Counted from the stretch's first letter, positions 20,763 to 53,008 are shown. The stretch: 64,000 nucleotides of DNA from Nonlabens sp. Hel1_33_55 (GCF_900101765.1 NZ_LT627735.1:2331344-2395343), one strand, 5' to 3'. Program-made: numbers and translations. The notes: generated from the letters alone by a model not told the origin.

Positions 20763-20861
20763 TGGTTCTTGCACAAATTACAGTACTACCTGTCATCCTG
20801 AACTCGTTTCAGGATCTGCTAGATTATTGTTCCCAGGACATGTTCACTCAAGATCAACGAG

Positions 20862-20882
20862 ACGCTGAAATGAATTCAGCGT
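20862..20882. other. Conserved hairpin ACGCTGAA-ATGAA-TTCAGCGT
   Basis: 8-bp stem with a 5-nt loop; a near-identical hairpin occurs at 42336-42356. Confidence 0.4.
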
Positions 20883-20914
20883 GAAAGTTTGATGAGAGCA
20901 AACACACTTAAATA

Positions 20915-30139: not shown

Positions 30140-30853
30140 TTGGAAAACTATTTCAACATTCTATTTTCTGAAGTCAACATCACGCTTACCGTGCTGCTGC
30201 TCATCCTTATTGTTTATTGGATTTTTACCATGATCAGCGGTATTGATTTTGACCTGGATGTAGATGTGGACATCGATGTTGATGTGGATGCAGACCTAGA
30301 CATGGATTTTGACAGCATTGAAGGTGGCAACCTTGATTTTGAAGATGTTGCCAATGCAGAAGTGGATCGCGAGCACGTGGTCAACAAACGAACTCGACAG
30401 CTCAAATGGTGGCAAATCATATTGATTTACTTCAATTTTGTGGGTTTGCCGTTCATGTTCACCTTCACGTTTTGGATTTTCTTATGGTGGCTCATGAGCG
30501 TTTTAACAACAGCAGTAACAGGAAGCTATGATAATGTTTTTGGCTTCATTATCGTGCTGGCAGCTCTCATTCCAGCGCTATTTGTGACAAAAATCGTAAC
30601 CACACCATTTAAAGCGTTTTTCAAAAACTTGAATAAAGATGGCGACAAGGCAGTAGACTTTCTAGGCCGCAGCGCTATCTTGATGTCCTCCATTTCAGGA
30701 GATAAGTTGGGCAATGCAGAAGTGCTTGCCGATGGAAATCCCATGAGTATTTACGTCAAGTCGTTGGATGGATCAGAATTACGCTTTCGTGAAAGCGTGC
30801 TCATCATCAAGCAATCGGACGATAAAAATTATTTTTTAGTGAGTAAGGCGTAA
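30140..30853 (+). CDS. NfeD-like (YqiJ/DUF1449) membrane protein with C-terminal OB-fold
   Basis: N-terminal TM segment, an acidic DVDVDID repeat, further TM segments, and a C-terminal beta-barrel (GRSAILMSSISGDKLGNAEVLADGNPMSIYVKS). It sits immediately upstream of the flotillin gene, as in yqiJ-yqiK. Confidence 0.6.
   Translation: MENYFNILFSEVNITLTVLLLILIVYWIFTMISGIDFDLDVDVDIDVDVDADLDMDFDSIEGGNLDFEDVANAEVDREHVVNKRTRQLKWWQIILIYFNFVGLPFMFTFTFWIFLWWLMSVLTTAVTGSYDNVFGFIIVLAALIPALFVTKIVTTPFKAFFKNLNKDGDKAVDFLGRSAILMSSISGDKLGNAEVLADGNPMSIYVKSLDGSELRFRESVLIIKQSDDKNYFLVSKA
30782..30797. repeat. 16-bp palindrome, 15/16 copy in the NfeD CDS (RFRES)
   Basis: CGCTTTCGTGAAAGCG. Confidence 0.8.
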
Positions 30854-30861
30854 TCCATAAA

Positions 30862-30888
30862 GATGTCAGTCTGAGCTTGTCGAAGACG
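30862..30888 (+). repeat. Solo arm of the MITE-like repeat family (GATGTCAGTCTGAGCTTGTCGAAGACG)
   Basis: Exact family consensus, directly after the NfeD stop codon. Confidence 0.7.
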
Positions 30889-30964
30889 TGTCACTAAATA
30901 AAAAGATTAATAAATAATAACAACCGCAGAAACCATTCTGCACAACCATTAATAAAACCAAACT

Positions 30965-33037
30965 ATGGACGGAATTTTAGGAATTATTGTAACAGGACTG
31001 GGAATTCTCCTTTTCCTAGTCATCGTTTACTTCGCGATCATCGCGATGTTTTACAAAAAAGTACATCAAGGACAGGCGCTGGTGCGTACTGGTTTTGGAG
31101 GTACTAAAGTCGCGACAGACAAAGGTTTGTATGTAGTGCCGGTTTTCCACCGTGTGGAGACCATGGATATTTCAGTTAAGAAAATCCAGATTGAGCGTAT
31201 GGGCGTGGAAGGATTGATATGTAAGGATAACATGCGAGCCGATATCAAAGTAGCCTTTTTTGTACGCGTTAATAATGAGGTTGAATACATCAAGAAAGTA
31301 GCACAGACTATAGGTGTGCAGCGCGCTTCTCGCATTGAAACGCTAGAAGATCTTTTTGAAGCCAAATTCTCTGAAGCGCTCAAAACTGTAGGTAAGAAAT
31401 TCCAATTCATTGATTTGTACGAGGCTCGTCGGGAATTTCGCGATGAGATTGTGGATATCATTGGAACAGACTTGAATGGTTACACGCTGGAAGACTGTGC
31501 GATTGACTTTCTAGAGCAAACAAGTGTTGAATTTTTAAAGAAAGACAACATTCTGGATGCAGAAGGTATCAAGAAGATTACCGAATTGACCGCTGCGCAA
31601 AATATCAAGGCCAACTTGATCACTCGTGATGAAGAAAAAACAATTCGCAAGCAAGATGTTGAGGCTCGGGAAGCAATTCTCGAACTGGACAAACAACTCG
31701 CCGAAAAAGAAGAGCAACAAAAACGTGAGATTGCTAACATCAAATCTCGCGAAGACGCAGAAACTCTCAAAGTCGCCGAAGAAGAAAGACTCAAGTCTGA
31801 AACGGCACGCATAGCAACTGAGGAAAAAGTGAAAGTTGCCGAAGAAAACATGCAACGTCAGATTATTGTTGCAGAGAAAAACAAGCAACGTACCGATGCT
31901 GTAGAAACAGAACGCGTAGAAAAAGATCGACTATTAGAAGCAACAGAACGGGAAAGAGTCGTGACTCTGGCACAAATCGAGAAAGAGAAAGTAGTTGAAG
32001 TTGAGAAAAAGAACATCCAGGATGTCATTAGAGATCGCGTGGTTCTTGAAAAAGGAGTAGTTCAGGAGCAGGAAAACATGAAAGACATTGAAGCTTTCAA
32101 ATCTGCCGATCGTGCTAAACAAGTAGCCATTACAAATGCTGAGGCAAAAGCACAAGACGACTTGATCCGTATCACAATTGCTGCAGAGGCCTCTAAACAA
32201 GCAGCTGTTCAAAAAGCAGAGGAAATCAATATCGAAGCTCTTGCTCATAAAGAAGCCAGTGAAAAAGAAGCTGATGCACGTAAAATTCTTGCAGAAGCTA
32301 CCGCTAAAGAAGAAGCAACCGTTGGTTTATCTGAAGCACAAGTAATGCATGCAAAAGCTGAGGCTAGTGAACGTCAAGGAATTGTTGACGCACTGATCAT
32401 CCAGAAAAAAGCTGAAGCAGAGGCAAGCGGAATCACCGCAAAAGCGGCTGCAAAACGTCAAGATGGACTTGCTGAAGCCGAGGTTATCAAAGAAAAAGCC
32501 CTTGCAGATGCTGCTGGAATTGAAGAGAAAGCCAATGCGATGAAGAAACTCGATGGTGTAGGTAAAGATCACGAAGAGTTCAAACTACGTCTGGACAAAG
32601 AACTTCAAGTAGACCTGGCGCAAATCAACATCCAGAAAGATATTGCAGATGCACAAGCACAAGTGATAGGAGATGCATTGAGAGCGGCTAAGATTGATAT
32701 CGTTGGTGGTGAGACCATGTTCTTTGAACAAATCATCGGTCAGATCACTAAAGCCAAAGGTTATGATAGACTCGTGAATCATTCAGAAACGGTTACTGAA
32801 GTAAAAGATGCGATTCTAGGAAGTGGTGACGTGAAAGGGAATTTGCTTGATAAAGTCAAGGACTTTGCAGACCGCTACAACATCAGTTCTGAAGACATTA
32901 AAAACCTAACGATTGCCAATCTATTGATTGATTTACAGGCAAGAGTTGACAATAATGAAGACCAGAACATCTTGACCAACCTTATGAATCTGGCTAAAGG
33001 AATGGGGTTGTCCAATAAGAAGTTGGGTAATATCTAG
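30965..33037 (+). CDS. Flotillin-family SPFH-domain protein (YqiK-like)
   Basis: N-terminal TM segment, an SPFH/band-7 domain (QALVRTGFGGTKV...KVAFFVRV) and a long EA-rich coiled coil; 690 aa. Confidence 0.8.
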   Translation: MDGILGIIVTGLGILLFLVIVYFAIIAMFYKKVHQGQALVRTGFGGTKVATDKGLYVVPVFHRVETMDISVKKIQIERMGVEGLICKDNMRADIKVAFFVRVNNEVEYIKKVAQTIGVQRASRIETLEDLFEAKFSEALKTVGKKFQFIDLYEARREFRDEIVDIIGTDLNGYTLEDCAIDFLEQTSVEFLKKDNILDAEGIKKITELTAAQNIKANLITRDEEKTIRKQDVEAREAILELDKQLAEKEEQQKREIANIKSREDAETLKVAEEERLKSETARIATEEKVKVAEENMQRQIIVAEKNKQRTDAVETERVEKDRLLEATERERVVTLAQIEKEKVVEVEKKNIQDVIRDRVVLEKGVVQEQENMKDIEAFKSADRAKQVAITNAEAKAQDDLIRITIAAEASKQAAVQKAEEINIEALAHKEASEKEADARKILAEATAKEEATVGLSEAQVMHAKAEASERQGIVDALIIQKKAEAEASGITAKAAAKRQDGLAEAEVIKEKALADAAGIEEKANAMKKLDGVGKDHEEFKLRLDKELQVDLAQINIQKDIADAQAQVIGDALRAAKIDIVGGETMFFEQIIGQITKAKGYDRLVNHSETVTEVKDAILGSGDVKGNLLDKVKDFADRYNISSEDIKNLTIANLLIDLQARVDNNEDQNILTNLMNLAKGMGLSNKKLGNI

Positions 33038-33174
33038 GTTGATTTCTAGGGCGCTACACGGTTCTTTCTTTAGAAAGAATCGTGTCGGGCTATCCGCTAT
33101 ATCTTTTAAGCCTTATAGCCTTAAAAGGATACCGCTGCTATCCCTAGCGCGAGAAGCCAAAATATAATATTGAC

Positions 33175-33199
33175 TGTCAGTCTGAGCTTGTCGAAGACG
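33175..33199 (+). repeat. Solo arm of the MITE-like repeat family, upstream flank of the GIY-YIG gene
   Basis: TGTCAGTCTGAGCTTGTCGAAGACG. Confidence 0.7.
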
Positions 33200-33223
33200 G
33201 AATCATTAATCACTAAACCATCT

Positions 33224-33544
33224 ATGAAATTCTATTTTGTCTACATCTTAAAATGCAGCGATGATAGTTTTTACGCAGGTTTTACTTCTAATCTTGACCA
33301 AAGACTTGCAGAACATCAAATGGGTAAATCCGCTGGATATACATCTAAAAGATTACCCTTAGAATTGGTCTGGTTTGAGCAGTTTTTGGATTATCCAGAA
33401 CAAGCAATTCAATGGGAAAAGCGAATCAAAGGCTGGTCAAGGAGAAAGAAACAGGCATTAATCGATGGAAATTGGGACAATTTGATTTTGTTTTCAAAAA
33501 ACTACGCTGAGTATGGAAATAAGATTAAAAGAGTTGAAGATTGA
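33224..33544 (+). CDS. GIY-YIG nuclease family protein (YhbQ/UPF0213-like)
   Basis: FYFVYILKCSDDSFYAGFTSNLDQRLAEHQMG is a GIY-YIG motif. The protein is about 106 aa and is flanked on both sides by repeat-family copies. Confidence 0.7.
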   Translation: MKFYFVYILKCSDDSFYAGFTSNLDQRLAEHQMGKSAGYTSKRLPLELVWFEQFLDYPEQAIQWEKRIKGWSRRKKQALIDGNWDNLILFSKNYAEYGNKIKRVED

Positions 33545-33556
33545 TTCAAATTGAAT

Positions 33557-33660
33557 TGTCAGTCTGAGCTACACCTGTGCTGAGTTTATCGAAGTATCGA
33601 AGACGTTGTAGAAACTAATAAAGATGGTGCAGTCGCACTTCGACAAGCTCAGTGTGACAC
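33557..33660. repeat. Complete MITE-like element (inverted arm pair, left arm with internal duplication)
   Basis: Left arm TGTCAGTCTGAGC[TACACCTGTGCTGAGTTTATCGAAGTA]TCGAAGACG. Right arm GTCGCACTTCGACAAGCTCAGTGTGACAC is the reverse complement of the left arm. Confidence 0.7.
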
Positions 33661-33691
33661 AAACATTGAAAAATGAATATTGATACAACGA

Positions 33692-33775
33692 GATGTCAGT
33701 CTGAGCTTGTCGAAGACGATATAGGGACTAACAAAGCTTTTTAGAAGTCGCACTTCGACAGGCTCAGTGTGACAC
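33692..33775. repeat. Complete MITE-like element (inverted arm pair)
   Basis: GATGTCAGTCTGAGCTTGTCGAAGACG ... GTCGCACTTCGACAGGCTCAGTGTGACAC; 84 bp hairpin-forming. Confidence 0.7.
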
Positions 33776-33805
33776 GAGCATATAAAAAAGAGAAATGAAA
33801 TCGCA

Positions 33806-33831
33806 ATGTCAGTCTGAGCCTGTCGAAGACG
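33806..33831 (+). repeat. Solo arm of the MITE-like repeat family
   Basis: ATGTCAGTCTGAGCCTGTCGAAGACG, about 30 bp upstream of the giant ORF start. Confidence 0.7.
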
Positions 33832-33862
33832 ATTCGAACCAATAAAACTAACTACCATTTCA

Positions 33863-36800
33863 ATGGCAGATAAAGAACTAAAAGACACCACACAACTGGA
33901 CTCTGGAACTTACGAGATCATCCAGAGTCGATTGCTCAAGCAAAAAAATGACTTGCAGCAACGACTCCATGCGCTCAACGAAGAGCGCAAGAAAGTCTTC
34001 GGCTCGCTGGAAACTAGGTTGATTGCAAACGACCGTGTGAATACAGAGAATAACTGTATCGCTCGTGATATTGTGACCATCGGCAAGAACAGCATCTTTG
34101 GTTATAACGTGCACTTTGGATTACGTACAGAGATCAATCTGAGTGATGTTTTTAGTATTTATGAATTTGATCGGGAAGGGAAAGATGGTGATGCATTACG
34201 CTTTCGCGACCTGCCTGCCGGCAGGCAGGAAGCTGGGTCAAGTTTAGAACTCATTGAAGACCCAATCTTTCAAACCGACTTTGAAAATCTTTACAAGTAC
34301 TATCGCAATACCATTTTTTCCAAGTTTGCGATCATAGGGAATTACCTGCACATGGTTTTCCAGCTGAGTGATTCAGTGACGGATATCAAGACCTTTAAGT
34401 GGTTGATAAAAGAAAACGAATTGCAGTATGTGGACAACCGCAGTGAACACGAGTACCGTTTCCCAGCGCAATATGGATTTCAATGGAAAGAAGCTGGACG
34501 TGATAACCAGCGTGCAGGAAAGCACGGCCATGTATCGATTTTAGACAAAGTTTTTGTAGAAACTATAGGTGGTGATTTAACCATTAAAGTAGAAGATAAT
34601 ACAGACGATGGTCAAGGAATCTATCGGGAAGATGTAGAGCACCGCGACCAGACACTCGATGATGGTCAATACCGATATGCAGATTTAGGGAACCTCATCG
34701 TTCTAGAAATCAAACCATTTCAAGAAGAACCGCGTCATTTTGTGTACAACCACAAGATCAAGGAAGTAGAAAAAATTGACAGTATTGCTCAAGCTGCAGT
34801 GCTGTTACCAGACGAGCAAGGAATCATTTTCCCTAGCGGTTATTACTTGCAAACTGGTGAGTACAACGTGTTTCCAAGCGATGCTGGAAAACTAAAATTT
34901 CAGCAAAAAATTGCCTCGCCTAATGGTGAAGATCATTTATACGTTTTCTATAATGCTGCACAAGGATTGTACGTTCTCATGTCGTACAACGTGATTGATC
35001 AATCGGTAAAGACACCTATCGTTTGTAATGGATTTACAATTTTGGAACAAGGTGAGCTGTGCTACTTCCGTAATGGAGATGAGCAGACGAAGCACCACAT
35101 GATGCAAATATGGCAAACCCCTTATTTGAAAGGTGATATTGTACCGTCAGAGCATCAAGATACCATGCTCTATAAAATAGGTAACAAGGACATTGTAAAA
35201 GCAATGGCCGAAGCAAACGAGCTACTGACTCTTTTAAATAAAGAAGACAGCTACGGCGGTTTATATGATGATATCGCTCGTGCCTCAAAAGATATCCTAG
35301 ACGCATACTATTGGCTGCCAGAAGAGGAAACCAAGCAGATCAATCTGCCTCTTGGCGAAATCAACAAAGCATCTAATGCTGCGATTGACGAGTTTGAGAA
35401 AGTCAAGCAAATGCGCAAACAAGCAGCTGCAGAGACTAAGGATATTTCTAAAAAGGCTGAGACGCTATTCAGCAAAATAAAAAGCACGTCGTTCAAATCT
35501 ATTAATGATTTTGTAGAGCTGTTAACTCAACTGCGCAGTTTGCGTGGTGAAGCGATAGGTTTGTATGAAATACGTTATGTAGATACCGATTTCATAAAAG
35601 GAATCGAGGATCAAATCGTGGAGCAAAACGAAGTGATTTCTCGTCGTGCGGTTACCTTTTTGTTAGATGATAAGGCTCTAGCACCTTATCATGAGGCTGT
35701 TGCCGAAAAGCAAAAAGCTCTCGATGCTACTAAAAAGGTTATCGAGATTAAAAACCTTGAAAAGGAGGTCAATCAGATTGCAGAAGATCTGGAGTTACTA
35801 ATAGAAATCGTTTCTAATCTGGATATTGAGGACACGTCGCATTCCACTAAAATTATTGAGAACATCTCCTTGATATTTGCGACCATCAATCAGGTAAAAG
35901 CGGCGATTAAAAACAAGGTGAAAATTGTAGGTAAAAAAGAAGCTCAAGCCGATTTTGCCGCACAGCTGAAGTTGATTGATCAGAGCATTATCAATTACCT
36001 AGACATTGCCAACACGCCAGAAAAGTGTGATGAATTCTTAACTAAAATCTCCATACAGCTAGAAGAGCTAGAAGGAAAGTTTGCGGATTATGATGAGTAC
36101 ATCACAGAAATTATTGCCAAGCGTGAAGAAGTGTATGCCGCTTTTGATAATCGCAAAAGCAGTCTGATAGAAGCGCGTAATAAAAAGGCAATATCCTACC
36201 AAAACGCTGCAGAACGTATTATCAAAGGGGTTCAAAAAAGAGCACAATCACTGGATAGCGCGACAGAAATCAACGGCTATTTTGCCAGTGATTTAATGAT
36301 TAATAAAGTGCGAGACATCATCGCACAATTAAAAGATCTGGAGGACGCTGGAAAAGCCGAAGCCATTGAAACAGCCCTCAAAGTAGCTCGAGAAGATGCC
36401 TTGAGAAAACTCAAGGATAAGAACGAGCTTTATGAGGATGGTGATAACATCATCAAGCTGGGCAAGCATAAATTTGGCGTTAATAAACAACAGCTGGACT
36501 TAACCATAGTCTTCAAGGATAATGCGCTGTTTTATCATCTTACAGGGACCGATTTCTATCAGGAATTACACAATGAGATCCTGACGCAATCCAAAGGAAT
36601 CTGGAATCAAGAATTGGTTTCAGAAAACTCTGAAGTCTATCGGGCGGCTTATCTCGCCTACTCTATCTTTAAAACTGGAGACAAAGAAGCTTTGAGAATG
36701 ATGAGTCCTACAGATTTGCTATTGCGCGTGCAGGAAATAGCGAGCGGCAACTATTCTGGCGGTTATGTGAAAGGTGTTCACGATCACGACACAGCACAGA

Positions 36801-38875
36801 TTTTAAGCGTTTTATTACACAAACATCATGATCTAGGCTTGCTCACATATGATCCAAACACGAGAGCAAAAGCGCAGTTTTTTTGGAACAGTTTAGAGCA
36901 GTCGCAACGTTCCAACCTCAACCGTATTTTAAAAAGTGCTGGCGAGGTGTTATCTGTTTTTCCAGATAGTAAAGAGTATGATTTTATTGTGGAGGAATTG
37001 GCTGATGAGATTTTTAAAGCCAATAGTGCAAACAAGACCGACTTCGACAAGCTCAGTCTGACAAAGGAAAAAACACCAAGCGATGTCACGTTGAGCCTGT
37101 CGAAACGGAGTTTAGATTCTATAAAGCATAATTCCAACTCGACTGCTGGAAACGAACACCAAATCGCTGAATATCTATTCAATGAACTAAAAGACAACGA
37201 TCATTTTACTGTAAGTACGAGTGCTATTCAGTTAAAGGAAGCTTTTGAGAAAAAAATAAAATCTCAAAATGCCGATTTGAAATTCAAGAAAAGTCTAGAA
37301 GCCTGTGAGGACGAGAAGTCTAAAGTAGAACTGGTGAGACATTGGGTTTCTGCTTTCGCGAAAGCGGAATCAAAACAAGCTTTATTGCCCTATACAAACG
37401 AATGTGTTGCTAACATCCTCTACGGAAAACTGACTGCCGATAAAACGGTAGCAATATCGCCTGTGGAAACAATTACAGGATTAAAAGGATCGCATGGAAC
37501 GATCAACGAAAGTGAATTTGTATTCAATTACCACGAGTTTGTGAACGTTTTGGAGCATTTTACTACTGTAAAAGTGCCAGCTTATGAAACCTTTAGAAAA
37601 GCAAAACATCAAGTAACTGAAGAGTTAAAAGAATCGTTGCGATTGGAAGAATTCAAGCCACGAGTGCTAAGCTCATTTGTGCGTAACAAATTGATCGACC
37701 AAGTATATTTCCCATTGATAGGCGATAATCTGGCCAAACAATTAGGAACCGTAGGCGATACGAAACGTACCGACCGAATGGGATTGTTGCTCTTGATATC
37801 ACCACCAGGTTATGGTAAAACCACCTTGATGGAATACATGGCTAACCGGTTGGGCTTGATTTTTATGAAAATCAACGGTCCAGCTATAGGTCACGATATT
37901 ACCTCTGTAGATCCAGAAGCTGCTTCTAATGCGGCAACTCGTGAAGAACTCAAAAAGCTGAATCTTGCTTTTGAAATGGGTGATAACGTGATGTTATATC
38001 TGGATGATATCCAGCACTGTAATCCCGAGTTTTTACAAAAGTTCATCAGTCTGTCTGATGGAACACGTAAGATTGAAGGAGTTTATAATGGCAAGCCTAA
38101 AACCTATGATCTACGTAGTAAGAAATTCTGCGTGATCATGGCTGGTAATCCTTATACAGAAAGCGGAGATAAATTCCAGATTCCAGACATGCTTGCCAAC
38201 CGTGCAGATATTTATAATCTTGGAGATATCATAGGCGATACGGCTCATTTGTTTGAACTAAGTCTGGTTGAAAATGCATTAACGAGCAATCCAGTATTAC
38301 AACAGTTAAGTAACAAGCACTTTGATGATGTATATGCCTTAATCGATCGAGTTCAAAATGGCGCCAGCGATAACGAACTCAAAGGAAACCACAGCAACCA
38401 AGAAATAGCCGACTATGTCGCTGTCCTAGAAAAGGTATTGAAGATACGGGATACGGTTCTTAAAGTAAATGAAGCGTACATCGCCAGCGCAGGAATGGAA
38501 GATGCTTATCGTACGGAGCCTTCTTTCAAACTACAAGGTTCTTATCGTGATATGAATAAACTGGTCGCTAAAGTTGTTCCTATCATGGATGATAAAGAGT
38601 TACAAACTCTCCTATCATCACACTATGAAAGTGAATCACAAACCTTAACCAGCGCTGCAGAAGCAAACTTGTTGAAATACAAAGAACTGGTAAGCACCAT
38701 AAAACCAAAAGAGCAAGAACGATGGACAGCCATCAAAGAAATTTTTGCAAAAAATAACAAGCTGAACGGTCTAGGTGGGCAAAATCAAATGTCTCAAGTA
38801 TTGAATCAGATGATGGATTTTACTGAAAATCTAGAGGGAATAAAAGAGGTGTTGAAGAAAGGGTTAGCTAAGTAA
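33863..38875 (+). CDS. Giant multidomain protein (1670 aa) with C-terminal AAA+ ATPase module (MoxR/AAA_5-like)
   Basis: Continuous ORF. Walker A LLLLISPPGYGKTTL, Walker B VMLYLDDIQHCNPE, sensor-1 FCVIMAGNPYT and arginine ANRADIYNL at about aa 1300-1450. The N-terminal 1250 aa comprise a coiled coil, a beta-rich region and long helical arrays. It contains an in-frame copy of the repeat family at 37041-37107. Confidence 0.6.
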   Translation: MADKELKDTTQLDSGTYEIIQSRLLKQKNDLQQRLHALNEERKKVFGSLETRLIANDRVNTENNCIARDIVTIGKNSIFGYNVHFGLRTEINLSDVFSIYEFDREGKDGDALRFRDLPAGRQEAGSSLELIEDPIFQTDFENLYKYYRNTIFSKFAIIGNYLHMVFQLSDSVTDIKTFKWLIKENELQYVDNRSEHEYRFPAQYGFQWKEAGRDNQRAGKHGHVSILDKVFVETIGGDLTIKVEDNTDDGQGIYREDVEHRDQTLDDGQYRYADLGNLIVLEIKPFQEEPRHFVYNHKIKEVEKIDSIAQAAVLLPDEQGIIFPSGYYLQTGEYNVFPSDAGKLKFQQKIASPNGEDHLYVFYNAAQGLYVLMSYNVIDQSVKTPIVCNGFTILEQGELCYFRNGDEQTKHHMMQIWQTPYLKGDIVPSEHQDTMLYKIGNKDIVKAMAEANELLTLLNKEDSYGGLYDDIARASKDILDAYYWLPEEETKQINLPLGEINKASNAAIDEFEKVKQMRKQAAAETKDISKKAETLFSKIKSTSFKSINDFVELLTQLRSLRGEAIGLYEIRYVDTDFIKGIEDQIVEQNEVISRRAVTFLLDDKALAPYHEAVAEKQKALDATKKVIEIKNLEKEVNQIAEDLELLIEIVSNLDIEDTSHSTKIIENISLIFATINQVKAAIKNKVKIVGKKEAQADFAAQLKLIDQSIINYLDIANTPEKCDEFLTKISIQLEELEGKFADYDEYITEIIAKREEVYAAFDNRKSSLIEARNKKAISYQNAAERIIKGVQKRAQSLDSATEINGYFASDLMINKVRDIIAQLKDLEDAGKAEAIETALKVAREDALRKLKDKNELYEDGDNIIKLGKHKFGVNKQQLDLTIVFKDNALFYHLTGTDFYQELHNEILTQSKGIWNQELVSENSEVYRAAYLAYSIFKTGDKEALRMMSPTDLLLRVQEIASGNYSGGYVKGVHDHDTAQILSVLLHKHHDLGLLTYDPNTRAKAQFFWNSLEQSQRSNLNRILKSAGEVLSVFPDSKEYDFIVEELADEIFKANSANKTDFDKLSLTKEKTPSDVTLSLSKRSLDSIKHNSNSTAGNEHQIAEYLFNELKDNDHFTVSTSAIQLKEAFEKKIKSQNADLKFKKSLEACEDEKSKVELVRHWVSAFAKAESKQALLPYTNECVANILYGKLTADKTVAISPVETITGLKGSHGTINESEFVFNYHEFVNVLEHFTTVKVPAYETFRKAKHQVTEELKESLRLEEFKPRVLSSFVRNKLIDQVYFPLIGDNLAKQLGTVGDTKRTDRMGLLLLISPPGYGKTTLMEYMANRLGLIFMKINGPAIGHDITSVDPEAASNAATREELKKLNLAFEMGDNVMLYLDDIQHCNPEFLQKFISLSDGTRKIEGVYNGKPKTYDLRSKKFCVIMAGNPYTESGDKFQIPDMLANRADIYNLGDIIGDTAHLFELSLVENALTSNPVLQQLSNKHFDDVYALIDRVQNGASDNELKGNHSNQEIADYVAVLEKVLKIRDTVLKVNEAYIASAGMEDAYRTEPSFKLQGSYRDMNKLVAKVVPIMDDKELQTLLSSHYESESQTLTSAAEANLLKYKELVSTIKPKEQERWTAIKEIFAKNNKLNGLGGQNQMSQVLNQMMDFTENLEGIKEVLKKGLAK
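37041..37107. repeat. MITE-like element (arm pair in opposite arrangement) embedded in-frame in the giant ORF
   Basis: CTTCGACAAGCTCAGTCTGACA ... GATGTCACGTTGAGCCTGTCGAAACGG; translated as ...DFDKLSLTKEKTPSDVTLSLSKRS... Confidence 0.65.
37351..37366. repeat. 16-bp palindrome, 15/16 copy in the giant ORF (AFAKA)
   Basis: TGCTTTCGCGAAAGCG. Confidence 0.8.
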
Positions 38876-39246: not shown

Positions 39247-39903
39247 ATGCATTCAGTATCAGAGGAAAACTATATTAAGGCCATCTATCATCTTCAAAAA
39301 GGAACTGCGCTAGTTTCTACTAATGAGATTGCTGGAGAAATGAATACTAAGGCTTCCTCGGTTACGGATATGCTTAAAAGGCTGGCAGATAAAAATCTAG
39401 CAGAATACATTCCTTATAAAGGCTCGCGACTCACAAAGAGCGGCATCGATTGTGCCAACCAGATCGTTAGAAAGCATCGGCTTTGGGAGGTTTTTCTGGT
39501 AGAAAAGCTAGATTTCACTTGGGATGAGGTTCATGATGTGGCAGAACAGCTGGAACATATCCAGTCTCGCAAACTCATTGATGAACTGGATAAGCACTTG
39601 GGCTTTCCCAGAAAGGATCCGCATGGCGATCCTATTCCTGACCGAGATGGGAATTATGAAGAGGTCCAACAAATCCAATTATCAAAACTTACCAAGGGTG
39701 ATCAGGGAACCATCACTGGCGTTATCGATACGTCCAGTAGTTTTTTAAAATATTTGGATAAGCACCAGATAGAGTTGGGCAGTCATATCGAGGTCTTGGA
39801 ACGTGAAGAATTTGACGGGTCCTTCGTTATTAAAACCGATTATAAAACTCTACACATTTCACAGGCGATCGCAAACAATATTTATTTAAACTCCCAATCA
39901 TGA
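39247..39903 (+). CDS. DtxR/MntR-family metal-dependent transcriptional regulator with FeoA-like C-terminal domain
   Basis: The N-terminus MHSVSEENYIKAIYHL...SSVTDMLKRLADKNL is a DtxR HTH, followed by a metal-binding/dimerisation domain and a C-terminal SH3-like domain. Confidence 0.75.
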   Translation: MHSVSEENYIKAIYHLQKGTALVSTNEIAGEMNTKASSVTDMLKRLADKNLAEYIPYKGSRLTKSGIDCANQIVRKHRLWEVFLVEKLDFTWDEVHDVAEQLEHIQSRKLIDELDKHLGFPRKDPHGDPIPDRDGNYEEVQQIQLSKLTKGDQGTITGVIDTSSSFLKYLDKHQIELGSHIEVLEREEFDGSFVIKTDYKTLHISQAIANNIYLNSQS

Positions 39904-42288: not shown

Positions 42289-42291
42289 TAT

Positions 42292-42307
42292 CGCTTTCGC
42301 GAAAGCG
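42292..42307. repeat. 16-bp palindrome (perfect), intergenic inside the metal ABC operon
   Basis: Exact match. Confidence 0.95.
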
Positions 42308-42335
42308 GAAAAACTCAAGAAATAATAAAGAGCAG

Positions 42336-42356
42336 ATGCTGAAATGAATTCAGCAT
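42336..42356. other. Conserved hairpin ATGCTGAA-ATGAA-TTCAGCAT
   Basis: Same loop and inner stem as the 20862 hairpin; lies within the operon between the ATPase and permease genes. Confidence 0.4.
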
Positions 42357-42395
42357 GACAGAAACGGGAACTTGGAACTTTAAAACCAACAATTA

Positions 42396-43508
42396 GTGGA
42401 CATTACGCAATACTTTACGGATTACACTTTACGTACCATTACGCTGGGAACAGCCGTGCTGGGTGCGATCTGTGGTATGCTGGGAAGTTTTGCGGTGTTA
42501 CGCAAACAAAGCTTATTGGGTGATGCGATTTCGCACGCTGCCTTACCAGGAATAGCGATTGCGTTTCTCATCACTGGTGCTAAAGATTCCAATGTATTGT
42601 TATTAGGTGCCCTCGTCAGCGGTTTAATAGGTGTCTGGTGGATTCGTGGGATCACCACTAAAACACATTTAAAAACCGATACCGCTTTGGGCTTAATTTT
42701 AAGTCTGTTTTTTGGGTTTGGGATGTTGTTGTTGACCTACATCCAAAAACAGCCCAATGCCAATCAAGCTGGATTGGACAAATATTTATTTGGTCAAGCG
42801 GCAACCTTAGTGGAAAGTGATGTCATCATGATGAGCATTGTTACTGGTATCAGTTTATTAGTGATGCTGCTGTTTTGGAAGGAGTTTAAGCTATTACTGT
42901 TTGATAAAAACTATGCCATGACTTTGGGTTTCAATACCAAGTTTATTGATGGCTTGATCAGCTTCTTTATTGTTTTGGCGATTGTCATAGGATTACAAAC
43001 CGTTGGTGTTGTTTTGATGAGTGCGATGCTGCTCGCGCCTGCAGCTGCAGCAAGACAGTGGACCAATAGTTTGAGTGTGATGGTGTTGCTTGCGGCGATT
43101 TTCGGAATGTTTTCTGGTGTATTTGGTACTGCTATTAGTGCAAGTCAGCCTAATGTTTCAACGGGTCCGGTAATTGTTCTGGTAGCAGCCGTATTTGTCG
43201 CTGTTTCATTTATATTTTCTCCTGGTCGTGGAATACTATTTAAACAATTACGATTGCTGCGCAATCGTCGTGAGCTTGAGCTACAAAAAACGTTGTACTT
43301 CATGTACACAATTGTAAGAGAACATGAAGATATCTCAAGACCTCACGCCATTAGAATTTTAAATAATTTTCAGGGATTTACTAAAAATACGTTGTCCCAA
43401 TTAGAACACAAGCATTGGATTGAAATCAGCGGTAACCAATGGTCACTAACCAATTCTGGATTTGAAACCGCTTCTAATTTGTATAATACCAATATCCCAG
43501 AATCATGA
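42396..43508 (+). CDS. Metal ABC transporter permease with C-terminal winged-helix-like extension
   Basis: ABC-3 permease core plus a cytoplasmic tail of about 90 aa (LRNRRELELQKTLYFMYTIVREHEDISRPHAIRIL...). Confidence 0.75.
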   Translation: MDITQYFTDYTLRTITLGTAVLGAICGMLGSFAVLRKQSLLGDAISHAALPGIAIAFLITGAKDSNVLLLGALVSGLIGVWWIRGITTKTHLKTDTALGLILSLFFGFGMLLLTYIQKQPNANQAGLDKYLFGQAATLVESDVIMMSIVTGISLLVMLLFWKEFKLLLFDKNYAMTLGFNTKFIDGLISFFIVLAIVIGLQTVGVVLMSAMLLAPAAAARQWTNSLSVMVLLAAIFGMFSGVFGTAISASQPNVSTGPVIVLVAAVFVAVSFIFSPGRGILFKQLRLLRNRRELELQKTLYFMYTIVREHEDISRPHAIRILNNFQGFTKNTLSQLEHKHWIEISGNQWSLTNSGFETASNLYNTNIPES

Positions 43509-45457: not shown

Positions 45458-45668
45458 GGCTTGGGTATTTGATTATGCTCAAAGTTACAGAGAATCTGTG
45501 AGTTTAAACGTTAGCAAAAAATGAAGAAAATTACTTAGACCTGCACATCACAAGGCGCAGAATGAATTCCGCATCTTATGATTGAGATCCACTTAGTTGA
45601 TGACTTTCACCGAACTGATTTGGAAATTGAGGTTTGGAGCTTGGAGCTTTAAGTTTAGAGTATGGAAC

Positions 45669-48950: not shown

Positions 48951-49952
48951 TTACGATACCAATGCCGGCTGCACCCATTTGAATTTATGGGATTCTGCAG
49001 GGATTTTCATGCGTTGAGCGATGCGTTCCATGCGTGATGGTAGTTTCATCAAATAATCACGGGCTTTTTCAGCATCTTCTGTAAGATCGTTCATGTTGGA
49101 AATATCCCAAGTGTCGATCAAGTTTTGAAGGATGTCAATATAATCTTGTGCTGTGTAAACACCTATGCGCTGTGCGCTGTTAGAAAAGTCTTCAAATGCT
49201 GCTCCTATCGTCTGGCCTGATTCACGTAAAAAGTGTGCAGGCATTACGATCTTGTGTACCATCATTTCTTTGAAGGCGATCATCATGTTGCTAGGATCTA
49301 CCTTAAAAATCTCATCCACAAATGTGGAGTAAGCTTTATGGTGACGCATCTCGTCTCCAGAGATAATACGACACATGCGTGATAGTGCTGTGTTCCCGTA
49401 TTCACGAGCCATTTTTGCCACACGGTTATGTGATATGTATGTAGCCAATTCCTGGAAACTGGTATAGACGAAATTCTTATAAGGATCACGATCTGTTCCT
49501 ATATCAAAACCATCTGCGATCAAGTGCTGTGTCGTTATTTCTACCTCACGCATGTTCACGCGTCCTGACAAATAAAGGTATTTATTGAGGACATCACCGT
49601 GGCGATTCTCTTCAGACGTCCATTGACGCACCCATTTTGACCAGGCATTTCCTTTTCCTTCCATCTGATTAATACCTTCCACATCCATTAACCAGGATTC
49701 GTAAGTTGGTAGTGCTTCTTCAGTAATTGTGTCACCTACAAGGGTTACCCAAAAGTCATAAGGCAATTCTTTAGCCAGCTCTCTCATCTCCTTCAATTTA
49801 TCCAAAAATCCATCTGCTTGGGAATCAGGAAGAAAATCTGTAGGCTGCCATATTTTTTCCACAGGAATAAGGAATTTATCCATGAAGGACTCCACTTTGG
49901 ACTCCAGCGATTGCATAACTTCTATGCGAATATTTTTAAGAGGTGTTATCAT
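48951..49952 (-). CDS. Acyl-ACP desaturase (soluble diiron, ferritin-like)
   Basis: Diiron carboxylate motifs (EENRHGD ... SGDEMRHHKAY), homologous to plant-type stearoyl-ACP desaturase. Confidence 0.75.
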   Translation of the reverse strand: MITPLKNIRIEVMQSLESKVESFMDKFLIPVEKIWQPTDFLPDSQADGFLDKLKEMRELAKELPYDFWVTLVGDTITEEALPTYESWLMDVEGINQMEGKGNAWSKWVRQWTSEENRHGDVLNKYLYLSGRVNMREVEITTQHLIADGFDIGTDRDPYKNFVYTSFQELATYISHNRVAKMAREYGNTALSRMCRIISGDEMRHHKAYSTFVDEIFKVDPSNMMIAFKEMMVHKIVMPAHFLRESGQTIGAAFEDFSNSAQRIGVYTAQDYIDILQNLIDTWDISNMNDLTEDAEKARDYLMKLPSRMERIAQRMKIPAESHKFKWVQPALVS

Positions 49953-50033: not shown

Positions 50034-50777
50034 TTAAACGGCAGTTGAAGTGATACTATTATGTACCACAGATTGTGCCGCTTCTATAATTTCGTTGGGA
50101 TCCTTACTCGCGATAGGCATAGGTTTGTGAACCGTCACGCTTATGTGATTCCCTATCCCAAAGGGAAACTTACCATATCTGTCGACTTTCCAGCTATTGT
50201 TTACAGTCACGGGCACCACAATAGCATCAGGAACCTGACTAAATATAGTCAACAAACCACCACGCTGGAAGGGTTTAGGCACGCCGGTCCGGCTGCGTGT
50301 ACCTTCTGCAAAAATTACGACGCTGCGGTTTTTCTCATGAACGTTTTTTGCAAAAGCCGTCAATGCTTTTAGGGATTGCAGGCGATCCTTGCGGTCAATA
50401 GCGCAGTTCTCGCCTATTCTAAGGTTGAGCGATATGCTGGGAATATTTTTTGCCAGCTCCTTTTTTGCCACAAACTTGGGGTAATATTTCCTTAGGTAAT
50501 AGATCAACGGTGGTATGTCAAACATACTCTGGTGATTGCTCACAAAAATATAAGACGGCCCAATAGGTAAATCCTGCTCGTATTTAATGCTAAATGTATT
50601 GAATAGCGGTAGTTGCGTTCCCATCAAACACAAGTTGAGGATTGCCACACTTTTTTGATGCAAGTCATGTCCACCTATCCAGTGACAAATCAACTGAATA
50701 GGATGAAAGATCAACAACATCAGGAAAAAAAGCACCAGATGTATGACCGACAGCGGATAGGAAAGAATTTTCTGCAT
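50034..50777 (-). CDS. plsC: 1-acyl-sn-glycerol-3-phosphate acyltransferase
   Basis: HX4D motif NHQSMFD and FAEGTRS. The ORF is open to 50981 through the heptamer SSR (artefactual MELGTWN repeats); the likely start is the Met at 50777 (MQKILSYPLSV). Confidence 0.75.
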   Translation of the reverse strand: MQKILSYPLSVIHLVLFFLMLLIFHPIQLICHWIGGHDLHQKSVAILNLCLMGTQLPLFNTFSIKYEQDLPIGPSYIFVSNHQSMFDIPPLIYYLRKYYPKFVAKKELAKNIPSISLNLRIGENCAIDRKDRLQSLKALTAFAKNVHEKNRSVVIFAEGTRSRTGVPKPFQRGGLLTIFSQVPDAIVVPVTVNNSWKVDRYGKFPFGIGNHISVTVHKPMPIASKDPNEIIEAAQSVVHNSITSTAV

Positions 50778-50853
50778 CCTGCAAAGATAGGATGCTTTGC
50801 GATGTGTGATTGCGATTGGGTCAGGAATCAGTATGCGTGCATAGTAAATTGCC

Positions 50854-50986
50854 GAGTTCCGAGTTCCGAGTTCCGAGTTCCAAGTTCCAAGTTCCAAGTT
50901 CCAAGTTCCAAGTTCCAAGTTCCAAGTTCCAAGTTCCAAGTTCCAAGTTCCAAGTTCCAAGTTCCAAGTTCCAAGTTCCAAGTTTA
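50854..50986. repeat. Heptanucleotide tandem repeat (GAGTTCC)4(AAGTTCC)14 plus one degenerate unit
   Basis: 18 perfect 7-bp units read directly from the sequence, 77-210 bp upstream of the probable plsC start on the minus strand. Confidence 0.9.
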
Positions 50987-51067
50987 TAAAATATTTACTC
51001 GCAAATTAGAATGTGCTTCTTCACACCCAAACTTTTCAAACCTTTGTAACAAACTATCACAAAATAA

Positions 51068-51095
51068 AAACGCATCCCTTTTTGGAATGCGTTTC
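51068..51095 (-). terminator. Probable terminator downstream of the bacilliredoxin gene
   Basis: The minus-strand hairpin AAACGCATTCC-AAAAAGGG-ATGCGTTT is followed by a U-run. Confidence 0.4.
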
Positions 51096-51118
51096 TGATA
51101 TTTAAACGATTACTATTT

Positions 51119-51529
51119 CTAGCAGTTCTCGTTGTAGGCTCCTTTGAGGTTTTCTGCAATCATTTCTGCTGGGCGACCTTCAATGTGGTGACGCTCTAGC
51201 ATGTGCACCAGTTCACCATTTTTAAACAATGCCATACTAGGTGAACTAGGAGGAAATGGGACCATCGCGCTTCTTGCTGCATCAACCGCCTCGCGATCTA
51301 CACCTGCAAAAACCGTTACGATATTATCTGGCTTCTTGGAATTATCAAGAGACATCTTTGCTCCTGGACGTGCATTTGCTGCAGCACAACCACAAACGGA
51401 ATTCACAACTACTAAAGTTGTTCCCTCTTGATTGATGGCTTTGTTTACTGCGTCTGCTGTATATAAATGTTCAAAACCTGCGTTACCTAAATCGTCGCGC
51501 ATGGGTTGAACTAATTCTGCTGGGTACAT
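51119..51529 (-). CDS. Bacilliredoxin BrxA/BrxB (YphP/YqiW, DUF1094) family
   Basis: MYPAELVQPMRDDL...TTLVVVNSVCGCAAANARPGA...PSSPSMALFKNGELVHMLERHHIEG is closely similar to B. subtilis BrxA/BrxB. Confidence 0.75.
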   Translation of the reverse strand: MYPAELVQPMRDDLGNAGFEHLYTADAVNKAINQEGTTLVVVNSVCGCAAANARPGAKMSLDNSKKPDNIVTVFAGVDREAVDAARSAMVPFPPSSPSMALFKNGELVHMLERHHIEGRPAEMIAENLKGAYNENC

Positions 51530-51616: not shown

Positions 51617-52126
51617 TTATTCCTCTTCTTCAAGGAGTTCGTCTAGTTCTTTTTTGTAGAGCGTTTCTGCAAGATCTTCTGCGGTGCGCTCATATAGGTT
51701 TTCAATTTCTGGATCTGCACCGTGTTCTACAAGAAGACGCACTAATTTGAAGTCGCCTTTTGAATTCATGAGCGCCACCCACAATGGACCATTCTCATGC
51801 TCGTCCAATAGATTGGGATCTGCAAAATTATTGAGTAAAAGCTGTGCGGTACCTGTTTGCTTGTTCAAACTGCAATGGTGCAGCGCACTGTATCCTATCT
51901 TGTCCTGGTGGTTGGTGTCTGCTCCTTTTTTAATAAGTTCTGCCATGAGGTCTTCCTTACCAAAAAAAGCGGCGTGCATCAATGCCGTCCTGCCATCAGA
52001 ATCCTTAGCATCCACACCGTGGTCATCTAATAATTTGTTTAATTCTTCTGTCGCATCGCGATCCACAAGACTGCGCATACGTCTCAACGCATCGAAGGGA
52101 ACCAATGGTTGTTTTTCTTTTGCCAT
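51617..52126 (-). CDS. Ankyrin-repeat protein
   Basis: At least three ANK repeats (GRTALMHAAFFGKEDLMAELIKKGADTN ...). The start is trimmed to the Met at 52126 to remove overlap with the HIT gene. Confidence 0.65.
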   Translation of the reverse strand: MAKEKQPLVPFDALRRMRSLVDRDATEELNKLLDDHGVDAKDSDGRTALMHAAFFGKEDLMAELIKKGADTNHQDKIGYSALHHCSLNKQTGTAQLLLNNFADPNLLDEHENGPLWVALMNSKGDFKLVRLLVEHGADPEIENLYERTAEDLAETLYKKELDELLEEEE

Positions 52127-52127
52127 T

Positions 52128-52529
52128 TTATTTATAACTGTTATTAAATCTTTCTTGAATTTTATCTGCAAGTTCCTGCATCTCAGTATTTTCGAGCGTT
52201 ACTTTATTGTTAAATCGCATGTCTTCCATGTCTCGCAGCGGTATCAAGTGCACATGAACATGCGGCACTTCCAATCCTATGACAGACATGCCTATACGTT
52301 TACAGGTCACTTCTTCACGCAAACACAACGCTACCTGTCGGGAAAATTGCATGAGCCTGGTGTAAATGTCTTCCTCTAGGTCAAAAAGTTTATTGACCTC
52401 AACCTTTGGGACGCAAAGTGTGTGTCCAGGTGCGTTGGGATTGATGTCGAGAAAAGCGTAGAAATCATCAGTTTCTGCAACCTTATAAGACGGTATTTCT
52501 CCAGAAATGATTTTAGTGAATATGCTCAT
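52128..52529 (-). CDS. HIT-family (histidine triad) hydrolase
   Basis: HVHVHLIP histidine-triad motif. Confidence 0.75.
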   Translation of the reverse strand: MSIFTKIISGEIPSYKVAETDDFYAFLDINPNAPGHTLCVPKVEVNKLFDLEEDIYTRLMQFSRQVALCLREEVTCKRIGMSVIGLEVPHVHVHLIPLRDMEDMRFNNKVTLENTEMQELADKIQERFNNSYK

Positions 52530-52531
52530 GA

Positions 52532-53008
52532 TTAATCTCTGCTTATTTCCAGAATTTCTAGCTTGATAGTTCCTACGGGTACAGTAACCTCTGCCGTGTC
52601 ACCTACTTCCTTTCCTAGCAATCCTTGACCAATTGGAGAATCGACACTTATGTGACCTTTAGAAAGATCTGCCTCGCTTTGTGCCACAAGTTTGTAGTTC
52701 ATCACCATGTTATTGTTATGGTTTTTGATCTTGACAGTACTATGAATCAACGCTTTTGATAAATCAAGCGTATTCTCGTCAATAATACGTGCATTAGACA
52801 CAATAGCTTCCAACTTTGAAATGCGCATCTCGAGCATTCCTTGAGCTTCTTTTGCAGCATCATATTCTGCGTTTTCACTCAGGTCACCTTTGTCTCGCGC
52901 TTCGCCAATTGCCTGCGACGCCGCAGGTCTCTCGACGTCCTTCAATTGCTTCAGTTCGTCCTTTAATTTCTTAAGTCCTTCTTCTGTATAGTATGAAACG
53001 TTACTCAT
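52532..53008 (-). CDS. greA: Transcription elongation factor GreA
   Basis: 158 aa with an N-terminal coiled coil and a C-terminal FKBP-like domain (DSPIGQGLLGKEVGD). Confidence 0.85.
   Translation of the reverse strand: MSNVSYYTEEGLKKLKDELKQLKDVERPAASQAIGEARDKGDLSENAEYDAAKEAQGMLEMRISKLEAIVSNARIIDENTLDLSKALIHSTVKIKNHNNNMVMNYKLVAQSEADLSKGHISVDSPIGQGLLGKEVGDTAEVTVPVGTIKLEILEISRD

Follow-up and report, generated by a model that had tools for sequence, protein, structure and literature searches.

To our knowledge, nearly all documented contingency loci based on simple-sequence repeats (SSRs) concern surface or restriction-modification genes of host-adapted pathogens, and we know of no established role for the commoner heptamer long simple-sequence repeats (LSSRs) of free-living bacteria. 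A promoter-upstream SSR is found at nadA of Neisseria meningitidis, where a TAAA tract changes the phasing of regulator sites and expression is graded, a system that depends on conserved regulator sites flanking the tract on both sides. In non-typeable Haemophilus influenzae, hmw1A and hmw2A carry (TGAAAGA)n tracts of 13-38 units, 69-106 bp upstream of the start codon (Dawid et al. 1999, summarised in PMC2651432). According to the account in PMC2651432, 8- and 9-mer SSRs occupy the same promoters in other strains, and the copy number varies both between and within strains and modulates expression of a surface adhesin in this host-adapted pathogen, possibly through two start sites.

Tandem heptamers are also described in free-living bacteria. 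As the work of Mrazek et al. 2007 is summarised in PMC4679880 and PMC4692102, LSSRs with units of 5-11 nt typify non-pathogens, heptamers being the most abundant class; they are mostly intergenic and are attributed to polymerase slippage, with no demonstrated switch function in those summaries. Within the Flavobacteriaceae, Gramella forsetii KT0803 and Aequorivita sublithincola carry long intergenic heptamer arrays oriented with the downstream ORF, with other heptamer repeats nearby, while in close relatives that share the gene neighbourhood the intergenic regions are shorter and free of repeats (MacGregor 2015, PMC4679880). Many of these TAACTGA sets lie within a few nucleotides of start codons, suggesting a 5'-UTR or translational role (PMC4679880). 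Finally, the cyanobacterial STRR heptamers and the Xanthomonas GGGAATC repeats are intergenic tandem heptamers that vary in length and sequence between close relatives at the same sites; both are genome-wide families with G-rich units, some of which form G-quadruplexes (PMC4692102).

The tract considered here lies in a window of 64,000 nucleotides (64 kb) from Nonlabens sp. Hel1_33_55, the window being the whole stretch of DNA analysed. Positions are counted from its first letter, and negative positions from the ATG of the acyltransferase gene. The features of the region, all read on the minus strand, are as follows.

52532-53008, minus: neighbouring gene, GreA
52128-52529, minus: neighbouring gene, HIT
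51617-52171, minus: ankyrin-repeat protein gene, between HIT and bacilliredoxin
51119-51529, minus: BrxA/BrxB bacilliredoxin gene (TIGR04191, 201 bits)
51066-51096, minus: hairpin and T-run terminator of the bacilliredoxin gene, conserved in relatives by alignment
50980-50986, minus: degenerate terminal unit TAAACTT (AAGTTTA on the plus strand), the distal end of the array at -209, by direct reading
50882-50979, minus: distal SSR block, perfect (GGAACTT)14, or (AAGTTCC)14 on the plus strand, by direct reading and Tandem Repeats Finder
50854-50881, minus: promoter-proximal SSR block, (GGAACTC)4 in gene orientation and (GAGTTCC)4 on the plus strand, -77 to -104 from the ATG, a perfect period-7 run by direct reading
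50826-50850, minus: conserved block AATTTACTATGCACGCATACTGATT / TTTACTATGCAYGCATAYTGATT / AATTTACTATGCAYGCATAYTGATT, about -72 to -50, at a fixed distance from the ATG in 11 lineages
50782-50789, minus: predicted Bacteroidetes -7 element TATCTTTG (TAHHTTTG), -12 to -5, ending 4 nt before the ATG
50034-50777, minus: gene of the PF01553 lysophospholipid-acyltransferase family ("plsC-like"), 247 aa (Pfam PF01553, E = 5e-18)
48951-49952, minus: soluble acyl-ACP desaturase gene (PF03405), 81 nt downstream of the acyltransferase gene

Read directly, the plus strand at 50854-50986 consists of (GAGTTCC)4(AAGTTCC)14 and AAGTTTA, with a partial unit CC beside the array at 50852-50853; in gene orientation the repeat is TAAACTT (GGAACTT)14 (GGAACTC)4 GG, running from -209 to -77. 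Tandem Repeats Finder reports it at 50855-50984 with 99% matches and a score of 239, and its period of 7 and 18.6 copies, longer than chance, are those of an LSSR with a unit of 5-11 nt. It is the sole array with more than five copies that the program finds in the window. The 14-mer AAGTTCCAAGTTCC, which spans two units, has 20 matches in the window with up to two mismatches, 18 of them inside the array, while dinucleotide-preserving shuffles give an expectation of 0.52. The tract is real and far beyond chance. With 14 and 4 perfect units and a single degenerate one, it is long and uninterrupted, as are the slippage-prone tracts of SSR contingency loci, and its position 76 nt from the ATG and outside the ORF falls within the range of the hmw type (about 70-100 bp upstream of the start codon). 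As single-stranded DNA, the distal block (GGAACTT)14 is predicted to be unstructured (MFE -0.3 kcal/mol, z = 0.59), and the RNA of the tract region folds more weakly than shuffled sequences (z = +2.56), and a mechanism driven by hairpins or other structure was rejected. A mobile-element origin was also rejected, as the spacer and the flanks of the array have no other copies in the window. A search of 50600-51200 against Rfam found no family, a 13.5-bit match to SurA at E = 0.34 being taken as noise.

The neighbouring genes are all on the minus strand, and the order GreA-HIT-(Ank)-Brx-acyltransferase-desaturase is conserved among Nonlabens loci. The ankyrin-repeat gene at 51617-52171 is kept in most of the Nonlabens loci fetched and missing from N. 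ulvanivorans. The bacilliredoxin gene has its own -7 box, 14 nt before its ATG, and its terminator bounds an unconstrained spacer of 79 nt (50987-51065) distal to the SSR. The acyltransferase has its best match in Nonlabens sp. YIK11 (94% protein identity), and nearly all of its close homologues are 247 aa long and start with MQKI; these homologues place the host in Nonlabens (Flavobacteriaceae). Since the acyltransferase-desaturase pair is present in every Nonlabens locus fetched, the two genes likely form an operon. As to the product of the first gene, the profile scores establish membership of the PF01553 family and go no further than family level, lying under the NCBIfam cut-offs for PlsC (67.6 bits against 102.95 for TIGR00530, 30 against 501 for PRK15018).

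Much of what the earlier note had read from the sequence agrees with these results. Its repeat structure is borne out by direct reading, by Tandem Repeats Finder and by the shuffle expectation, and the array does lie 76 nt upstream of the minus-strand start that it proposed (MQKILSYPLSV, 50777) and downstream of the bacilliredoxin gene, beyond both that gene (51119-51529) and its terminator (51096-51066). The ORF beginning MELGTWN is, as it held, the repeat translated in frame. Its description of a slippage-prone SSR also holds, as the heptanucleotide tract is long, pure and unstructured and lies next to the acyltransferase gene on its upstream side, in a place where turnover between Nonlabens lineages is fast. 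Of its designation of the gene as plsC, encoding a lysophosphatidate acyltransferase, the family membership stands, while PlsC identity goes further than the score supports (67.6 bits against the cut-off of 102.95).

Array-bearing lineages were found by scanning metagenomes for the conserved block, followed by exact-protein look-ups. The junction is without an array in YIK11 (94%), the P0002 lineage (90%), P0008 (85%), P0004 (84%) and GCA_947491755 (80%), as well as in N. marinus and in four N. ulvanivorans strains (75%), in which the intergenic region is 146 bp long (4 strains, among the matches listed). As with other LSSRs, the array is intergenic and missing from close relatives with the same gene neighbourhood. 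When YIK11 is compared with the window, the terminator and the proximal 75 bp align, while the 79-nt spacer distal to the array, which ends at the conserved terminator, cannot be aligned even here; the array behaves as an insertion. A conspecific sequence for comparing copy numbers was not found, the exact Brx protein not being on record and the best acyltransferase match being at 94%.

Other lineages carry arrays of their own at this junction. An uncultured lineage (82% identity), whose protein falls into the same 90% protein cluster as that of N. marinus, has at least 17 copies of GGAACCT at the same junction, ending ...GGAACCTGGA|TTTACTATGC. Of its five metagenome contigs, four break off within the array, and the remaining one, a 334-kb scaffold, is interrupted there by a 100-N gap; because short-read assemblies break inside the array, copy numbers in this lineage are unusable. 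The complete genome of N. ponticola (83%, CP034549.1) contains a perfect octamer array, (ACTCACCA)10.1, at the orthologous junction (L138 1349-1429, 81 bp), ending ...ACTCACC|AATTTACTATGC. In the P0009 lineage (80%), the conserved block is preceded at a distance of 25 nt by six degenerate CYTCCAR heptamers (L128/L129 137-179). Its contigs also start, at positions 1-30 of L128/L129, with at least four copies of GCATTAA, which looks like an assembly break in another heptamer array. Moreover, decayed units occupy the array position in array-free lineages, namely CCTGGAA in P0002, CCTAGAA ATTTGAA in N. marinus and ACTAGAA in YIK11, and the N. ponticola unit (AACTCACC) is similar to the 8 nt of the window closest to the junction (AACTCGGC). 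In about 120-129 kb of Nonlabens DNA, the only other array with a period of at least 5 and at least three copies is in L025, a locus selected by the search itself. The junction is a true hot spot for repeat expansion, because such arrays are otherwise nearly lacking in the Nonlabens DNA compared. The turnover between lineages is fast (no array, a 7-mer, a variant 7-mer or an 8-mer), as a slippage-prone tract predicts, and the aligned sequences indicate that the site is evolutionarily unstable between related species. As a separate observation, L025 5599-5627 (Nonlabens sp. MAG-97) holds (GGAACTT)3 GGGACTT between two convergent genes, so that the GGAACTT unit recurs at unrelated loci within the genus.

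The proximal side of the tract was compared in 11 lineages (the window, YIK11, N. ponticola, N. marinus S1-08, N. ulvanivorans, GCA_947491755 and five metagenomic lineages), using an ungapped intergenic alignment anchored on the ATG. Promoters were sought by the Bacteroidetes TAHHTTTG element, and a sigma-70 scan was set aside as irrelevant for Bacteroidetes. The TA..TTTG box and its 4-nt spacer to the ATG are invariant in 11 of 11 Nonlabens lineages, and the copy at 50789-50782 is the sole TAHHTTTG on the gene's strand in the intergenic region. In the Bacteroidetes -7 element TAHHTTTG, the G lies 4-5 nt before the transcription start (PMC6847099). Given this published spacing and a -7 box 4 nt before the ATG, the transcription start site (TSS) is predicted to be the A of the ATG, giving a leaderless mRNA; the same leaderless -7 architecture is seen at one other gene of the window, at 39247. 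Further upstream, the conserved block has invariant columns TA.TATGC..GCATA...ATT in the 11 Nonlabens lineages (block positions also at L001, L002, L004, L127, L128, L130, L131, L136, L138 and L141), and its core, TATGCAYGCATA / TATGCATGCATA, centred at -60.5, forms a palindrome in most lineages. Block and -7 box are at a fixed distance of 47-48 nt from each other; neither the sequence separating them nor the DNA upstream of the block is conserved across the 11 lineages. From this pattern we infer that the block is a putative operator for a dimeric transcription factor, and the spacing of block and -7 box predicts a regulator-controlled leaderless promoter for the acyltransferase-desaturase pair. 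Other copies of the palindromic block, which might mark a regulon, were not found in the 64-kb window. The SSR adjoins the distal (5') edge of the block, 3-4 nt apart. No TAHHTTTG was found upstream of the tract on the gene's strand, where the sole relaxed match, TAAACTTG, derives from the terminal unit, though a start site lacking the motif may exist there.

The unit itself was examined in a GTDB scan for (GGAACTT)3, with one genome per species, in which 128 arrays in at least 120 stretches (loci L005-L124) were considered. Arrays of at least three GGAACTT units occurred in at least 120 stretches from Verrucomicrobiota, Planctomycetota, Acidobacteriota, Bacteroidota, CPR and other groups, and several genomes have many such sites, e.g., Pyrinomonadaceae BC1.208 and Gammaproteobacteria CSMAG_2624. 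Among the matches listed, these arrays often abut arrays of unrelated heptamers, and the 0.84 Mb around the 128 arrays contains 70 further perfect period-7 arrays of very diverse sequence, as compared with 3-9 arrays each for periods 4, 5, 6, 8 and 9; in these loci period 7 exceeds the other periods from 4 to 9 more than 10-fold. Three control heptamers of matched composition gave 2, 6 and 8 loci in viral contigs, where (GGAACTT)3 gave 9. Single GGAACTT copies in the window (8 + 7) exceed expectation at most about 1.8-fold and are not clearly enriched. A special, cross-phylum functional motif was rejected as the main explanation on the 70 diverse other heptamer arrays at the same loci and on control heptamers about as frequent; the phenomenon is a generic over-representation of heptamer SSRs, with no GGAACTT-specific element. 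The orientation of arrays and ORFs was measured by a strand-symmetric test: among the matches listed, 37 of the 128 arrays are followed in the sense direction, no more than 20 nt downstream, by the start of an ORF of at least 100 aa, as against 14 in the antisense direction. This bias echoes the TAACTGA story, yet it is not applicable to the tract upstream of the acyltransferase.

Several other repeats were observed in the window. The most frequent, a 16-bp perfect palindrome CGCTTTCGCGAAAGCG, has 21 sites with up to two mismatches (15 exact) in 64 kb, where 0 are expected, e.g., at 2428, 10762, 15518, 25072, 28805, 40041, 42292, 44672, 47198, 49995, 53088, 54733, 56300 and 59442. Most sites are intergenic, many of them shortly past the end of a gene, and their flanks are conserved in part (GTT.CGCTTTCGCGAAAGCG.AA); by its appearance the palindrome is either a dispersed element of the REP-like kind or a terminator hairpin that lacks a T-run. 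A second exact GGAACTTGGAACTT is found at 42367-42380 on the plus strand, in sense and 15 nt before the GTG start of an ABC-3 permease gene (42396), with a chance probability of roughly 0.003; this two-unit site would fit the description of the TAACTGA type in 5'-UTRs. The surrounding intergenic region, 42289-42395 (107 nt), also contains the REP-like palindrome and a second hairpin, and the orthologues flanking it in N. ulvanivorans are 1 nt apart. In addition, GGAGCTTGGAGCTT followed by TAAG at 45636-45649, between sensor-kinase and enoyl-CoA-hydratase genes, forms a 2.3-copy heptamer resembling the main unit, the hairpin AGAYGCTGAAATGAATTCAGCRTGA is present twice (20860-20887 and 42334-42361), and TGTCAGTCTGAGCYTGTCGAA (5 copies) and the partly complementary AGTCGCACTTCGACARGCTCAGTGTGACAC (2 copies) are spread over 30843-37104, around a 1670-aa ORF.

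What the tract might do depends largely on its position relative to these promoter elements. The earlier note had suggested a phase-variable contingency locus, in which gain or loss of units would shift the frame if translated or alter the promoter spacing if not. Such ON/OFF switching, by frameshift in an N-terminally extended ORF (a 315-aa ORF from TTG) or by a changed core promoter spacing, now appears extremely unlikely. The repeat can be read through without a stop in the frame of the gene, and seven is not a multiple of three; however, the homologues are 247 aa long with an MQKI start, the N-terminal extension is missing from relatives, and between tract and ATG there are a conserved -7 box and a conserved block that is non-coding. 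With the start codon conserved and promoter elements between tract and ATG, the tract is probably untranslated, which speaks against the frameshift that the note had envisaged. Its other route, through promoter spacing, fares no better, as the sole -7 box lies at 50789-50782 and the tract, at -77 to -209, lies beyond the block centred at -60.5 and at least 65 bp upstream of that box. A contingency tract that switches expression would be expected inside the translated ORF or at the core promoter elements, and this one is outside both, given the -7 box (-12 to -5), the block (-72 to -50) and the predicted TSS. Since the tract is outside the core promoter and the operator-promoter interval, changes in unit number would shift neither frame nor promoter spacing. 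Thus, the slippage-type SSR at a fast-turnover site is retained from the note's overall interpretation, while the anatomy of the locus contradicts ON/OFF switching by either route, and the label of contingency locus could apply only hypothetically, in a graded, hmw-like form. The units might instead be iterated, sequence-specific sites for a DNA- or RNA-binding protein, and the RNA version would resemble the proposal for TAACTGA repeats in 5'-UTRs. The sense-orientation ORF-start bias around the GTDB arrays (37 against 14 antisense) and the second exact GGAACTTGGAACTT before the gene at 42396 are in line with such binding. Yet, the lineages have different units (GGAACTT/C, GGAACCT, ACTCACCA), a variation that a conserved recognition sequence does not permit, and GGAACTT shows no over-representation against the control heptamers or as single copies in the window. 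Moreover, the mRNA should not contain the tract, which lies upstream of the predicted start site; we regard this explanation as very improbable. A further possibility, that the tract is genuine and only its length in the window was guessed by the assembler, deserves hardly any credence. Short-read assembly is indeed defeated in the related lineage, whose metagenome contigs break or gap inside the array, but the 133-bp tract in the window has unique flanks on both sides and an internal two-block structure, the complete genome of N. ponticola has an 81-bp array at the same junction, and arrays here are reproducible across independent data sets.

On balance, and by a little better than an even chance, the tract would be an LSSR that has expanded from a proto-repeat in the one intergenic segment that is unconstrained, and its influence on expression would be nil or small and graded. 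Replication slippage, which we infer as the generating process, would make the tract and keep it pure, starting from a proto-repeat of one or two units, (C)CTRGAA, at the distal edge of the promoter/operator. This shared proto-repeat may have expanded in different registers in several lineages, or may have been lost repeatedly. The array would then occupy the only stretch free of constraint, from the bacilliredoxin terminator to the putative operator (-60.5), itself upstream of the predicted leaderless -7 promoter, and gain or loss of units would only lengthen or shorten a non-conserved spacer upstream of -77, leaving the reading frame, the core-promoter spacing and the operator-to-promoter distance unchanged. 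As only this spacer would be affected, the tract is expected to be length-polymorphic, with no effect or a small graded effect on expression and no ON/OFF switch. A regulatory effect of the tract may yet exist. Arrays recur at precisely this junction in three or four lineages, which counts against a neutral LSSR, and recurrence with different unit lengths is also a signature of selected mutability, as at the H. influenzae hmw promoters (PMC2651432). It is therefore possible, if rather doubtful, that the tract is a rheostat of the hmw type, in which slippage alters the unit number and the tract length tunes transcription of the acyltransferase-desaturase pair. This could work through altered geometry or flexibility of the upstream DNA beside the -60.5 operator or through occupancy by nucleoid proteins, and the outcome would be a heritable, reversible diversity of membrane lipids within the population. 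The geometry resembles that of hmw1A/hmw2A, with 18 units 76 bp upstream of the start, the arrays are long and pure, the junction is strongly array-enriched relative to the other Nonlabens DNA compared, and it is the recurrence of 7- and 8-mer arrays, including the 7-mer variant, at one junction in other lineages that keeps the idea alive. Against it, the DNA upstream of the tract has no conserved element for which spacing or phasing would count, most lineages, the closest included, lack the array and have promoter and operator intact, the host is a free-living marine bacterium and the target a lipid-metabolism operon rather than a surface or restriction-modification gene, and a shared proto-repeat would explain the recurrence without selection. 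A stronger form, in which the junction is a selected "mutability module" where lineages have independently recruited 7- or 8-mers and the unit number tunes a lipid-remodelling operon, seems improbable. Were it true, it would amount to heritable, reversible bet-hedging of membrane unsaturation in free-living marine flavobacteria, and would extend an hmw-like rheostat beyond pathogens and surface-antigen genes.

The locus offers a natural series within one genus at one defined junction, from no array through a single unit to a 7-mer, a variant 7-mer and an 8-mer array. As cultured comparators exist, N. ponticola with an array and N. marinus, N. ulvanivorans and YIK11 without, it becomes directly testable whether heptamer LSSRs do anything. 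If the array does nothing, the locus would still be a useful strain-typing (VNTR) marker, and it warns that short-read assemblies break here.

Compared with the systems described above, the tract resembles hmw in its 7-bp unit and its position outside the coding frame, and the 7-mer, variant 7-mer and 8-mer of Nonlabens parallel the 7-, 8- and 9-mers of hmw. It differs from hmw in having one recognisable promoter, which is downstream of the tract, and in its lipid-metabolism target and free-living marine host. As at nadA, where expression is graded and not binary, the SSR lies upstream of the core promoter; unlike at nadA, the distal side of the Nonlabens tract is a non-conserved spacer. In contrast to the STRR and Xanthomonas repeats, it stands alone in 64 kb, and no structure is predicted for it. 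The Gramella and Aequorivita arrays belong to the same family and are likewise missing in relatives with the same neighbourhood, although their unit is TAACTGA, while that of the Nonlabens tract is GGAACTT/GGAACTC. Unlike the TAACTGA type, the Nonlabens tract stops 76 nt short of the ATG, outside the ribosome-binding region and on the upstream side of the predicted TSS. The LSSR work of Mrazek et al. consists of genome-wide statistics, and in the summaries of that work the recurrence of different units at one orthologous promoter-distal junction is not reported. The tract is best read as a slippage-generated LSSR of the heptamer class that earlier work has described from free-living bacteria, the Flavobacteriaceae among them.
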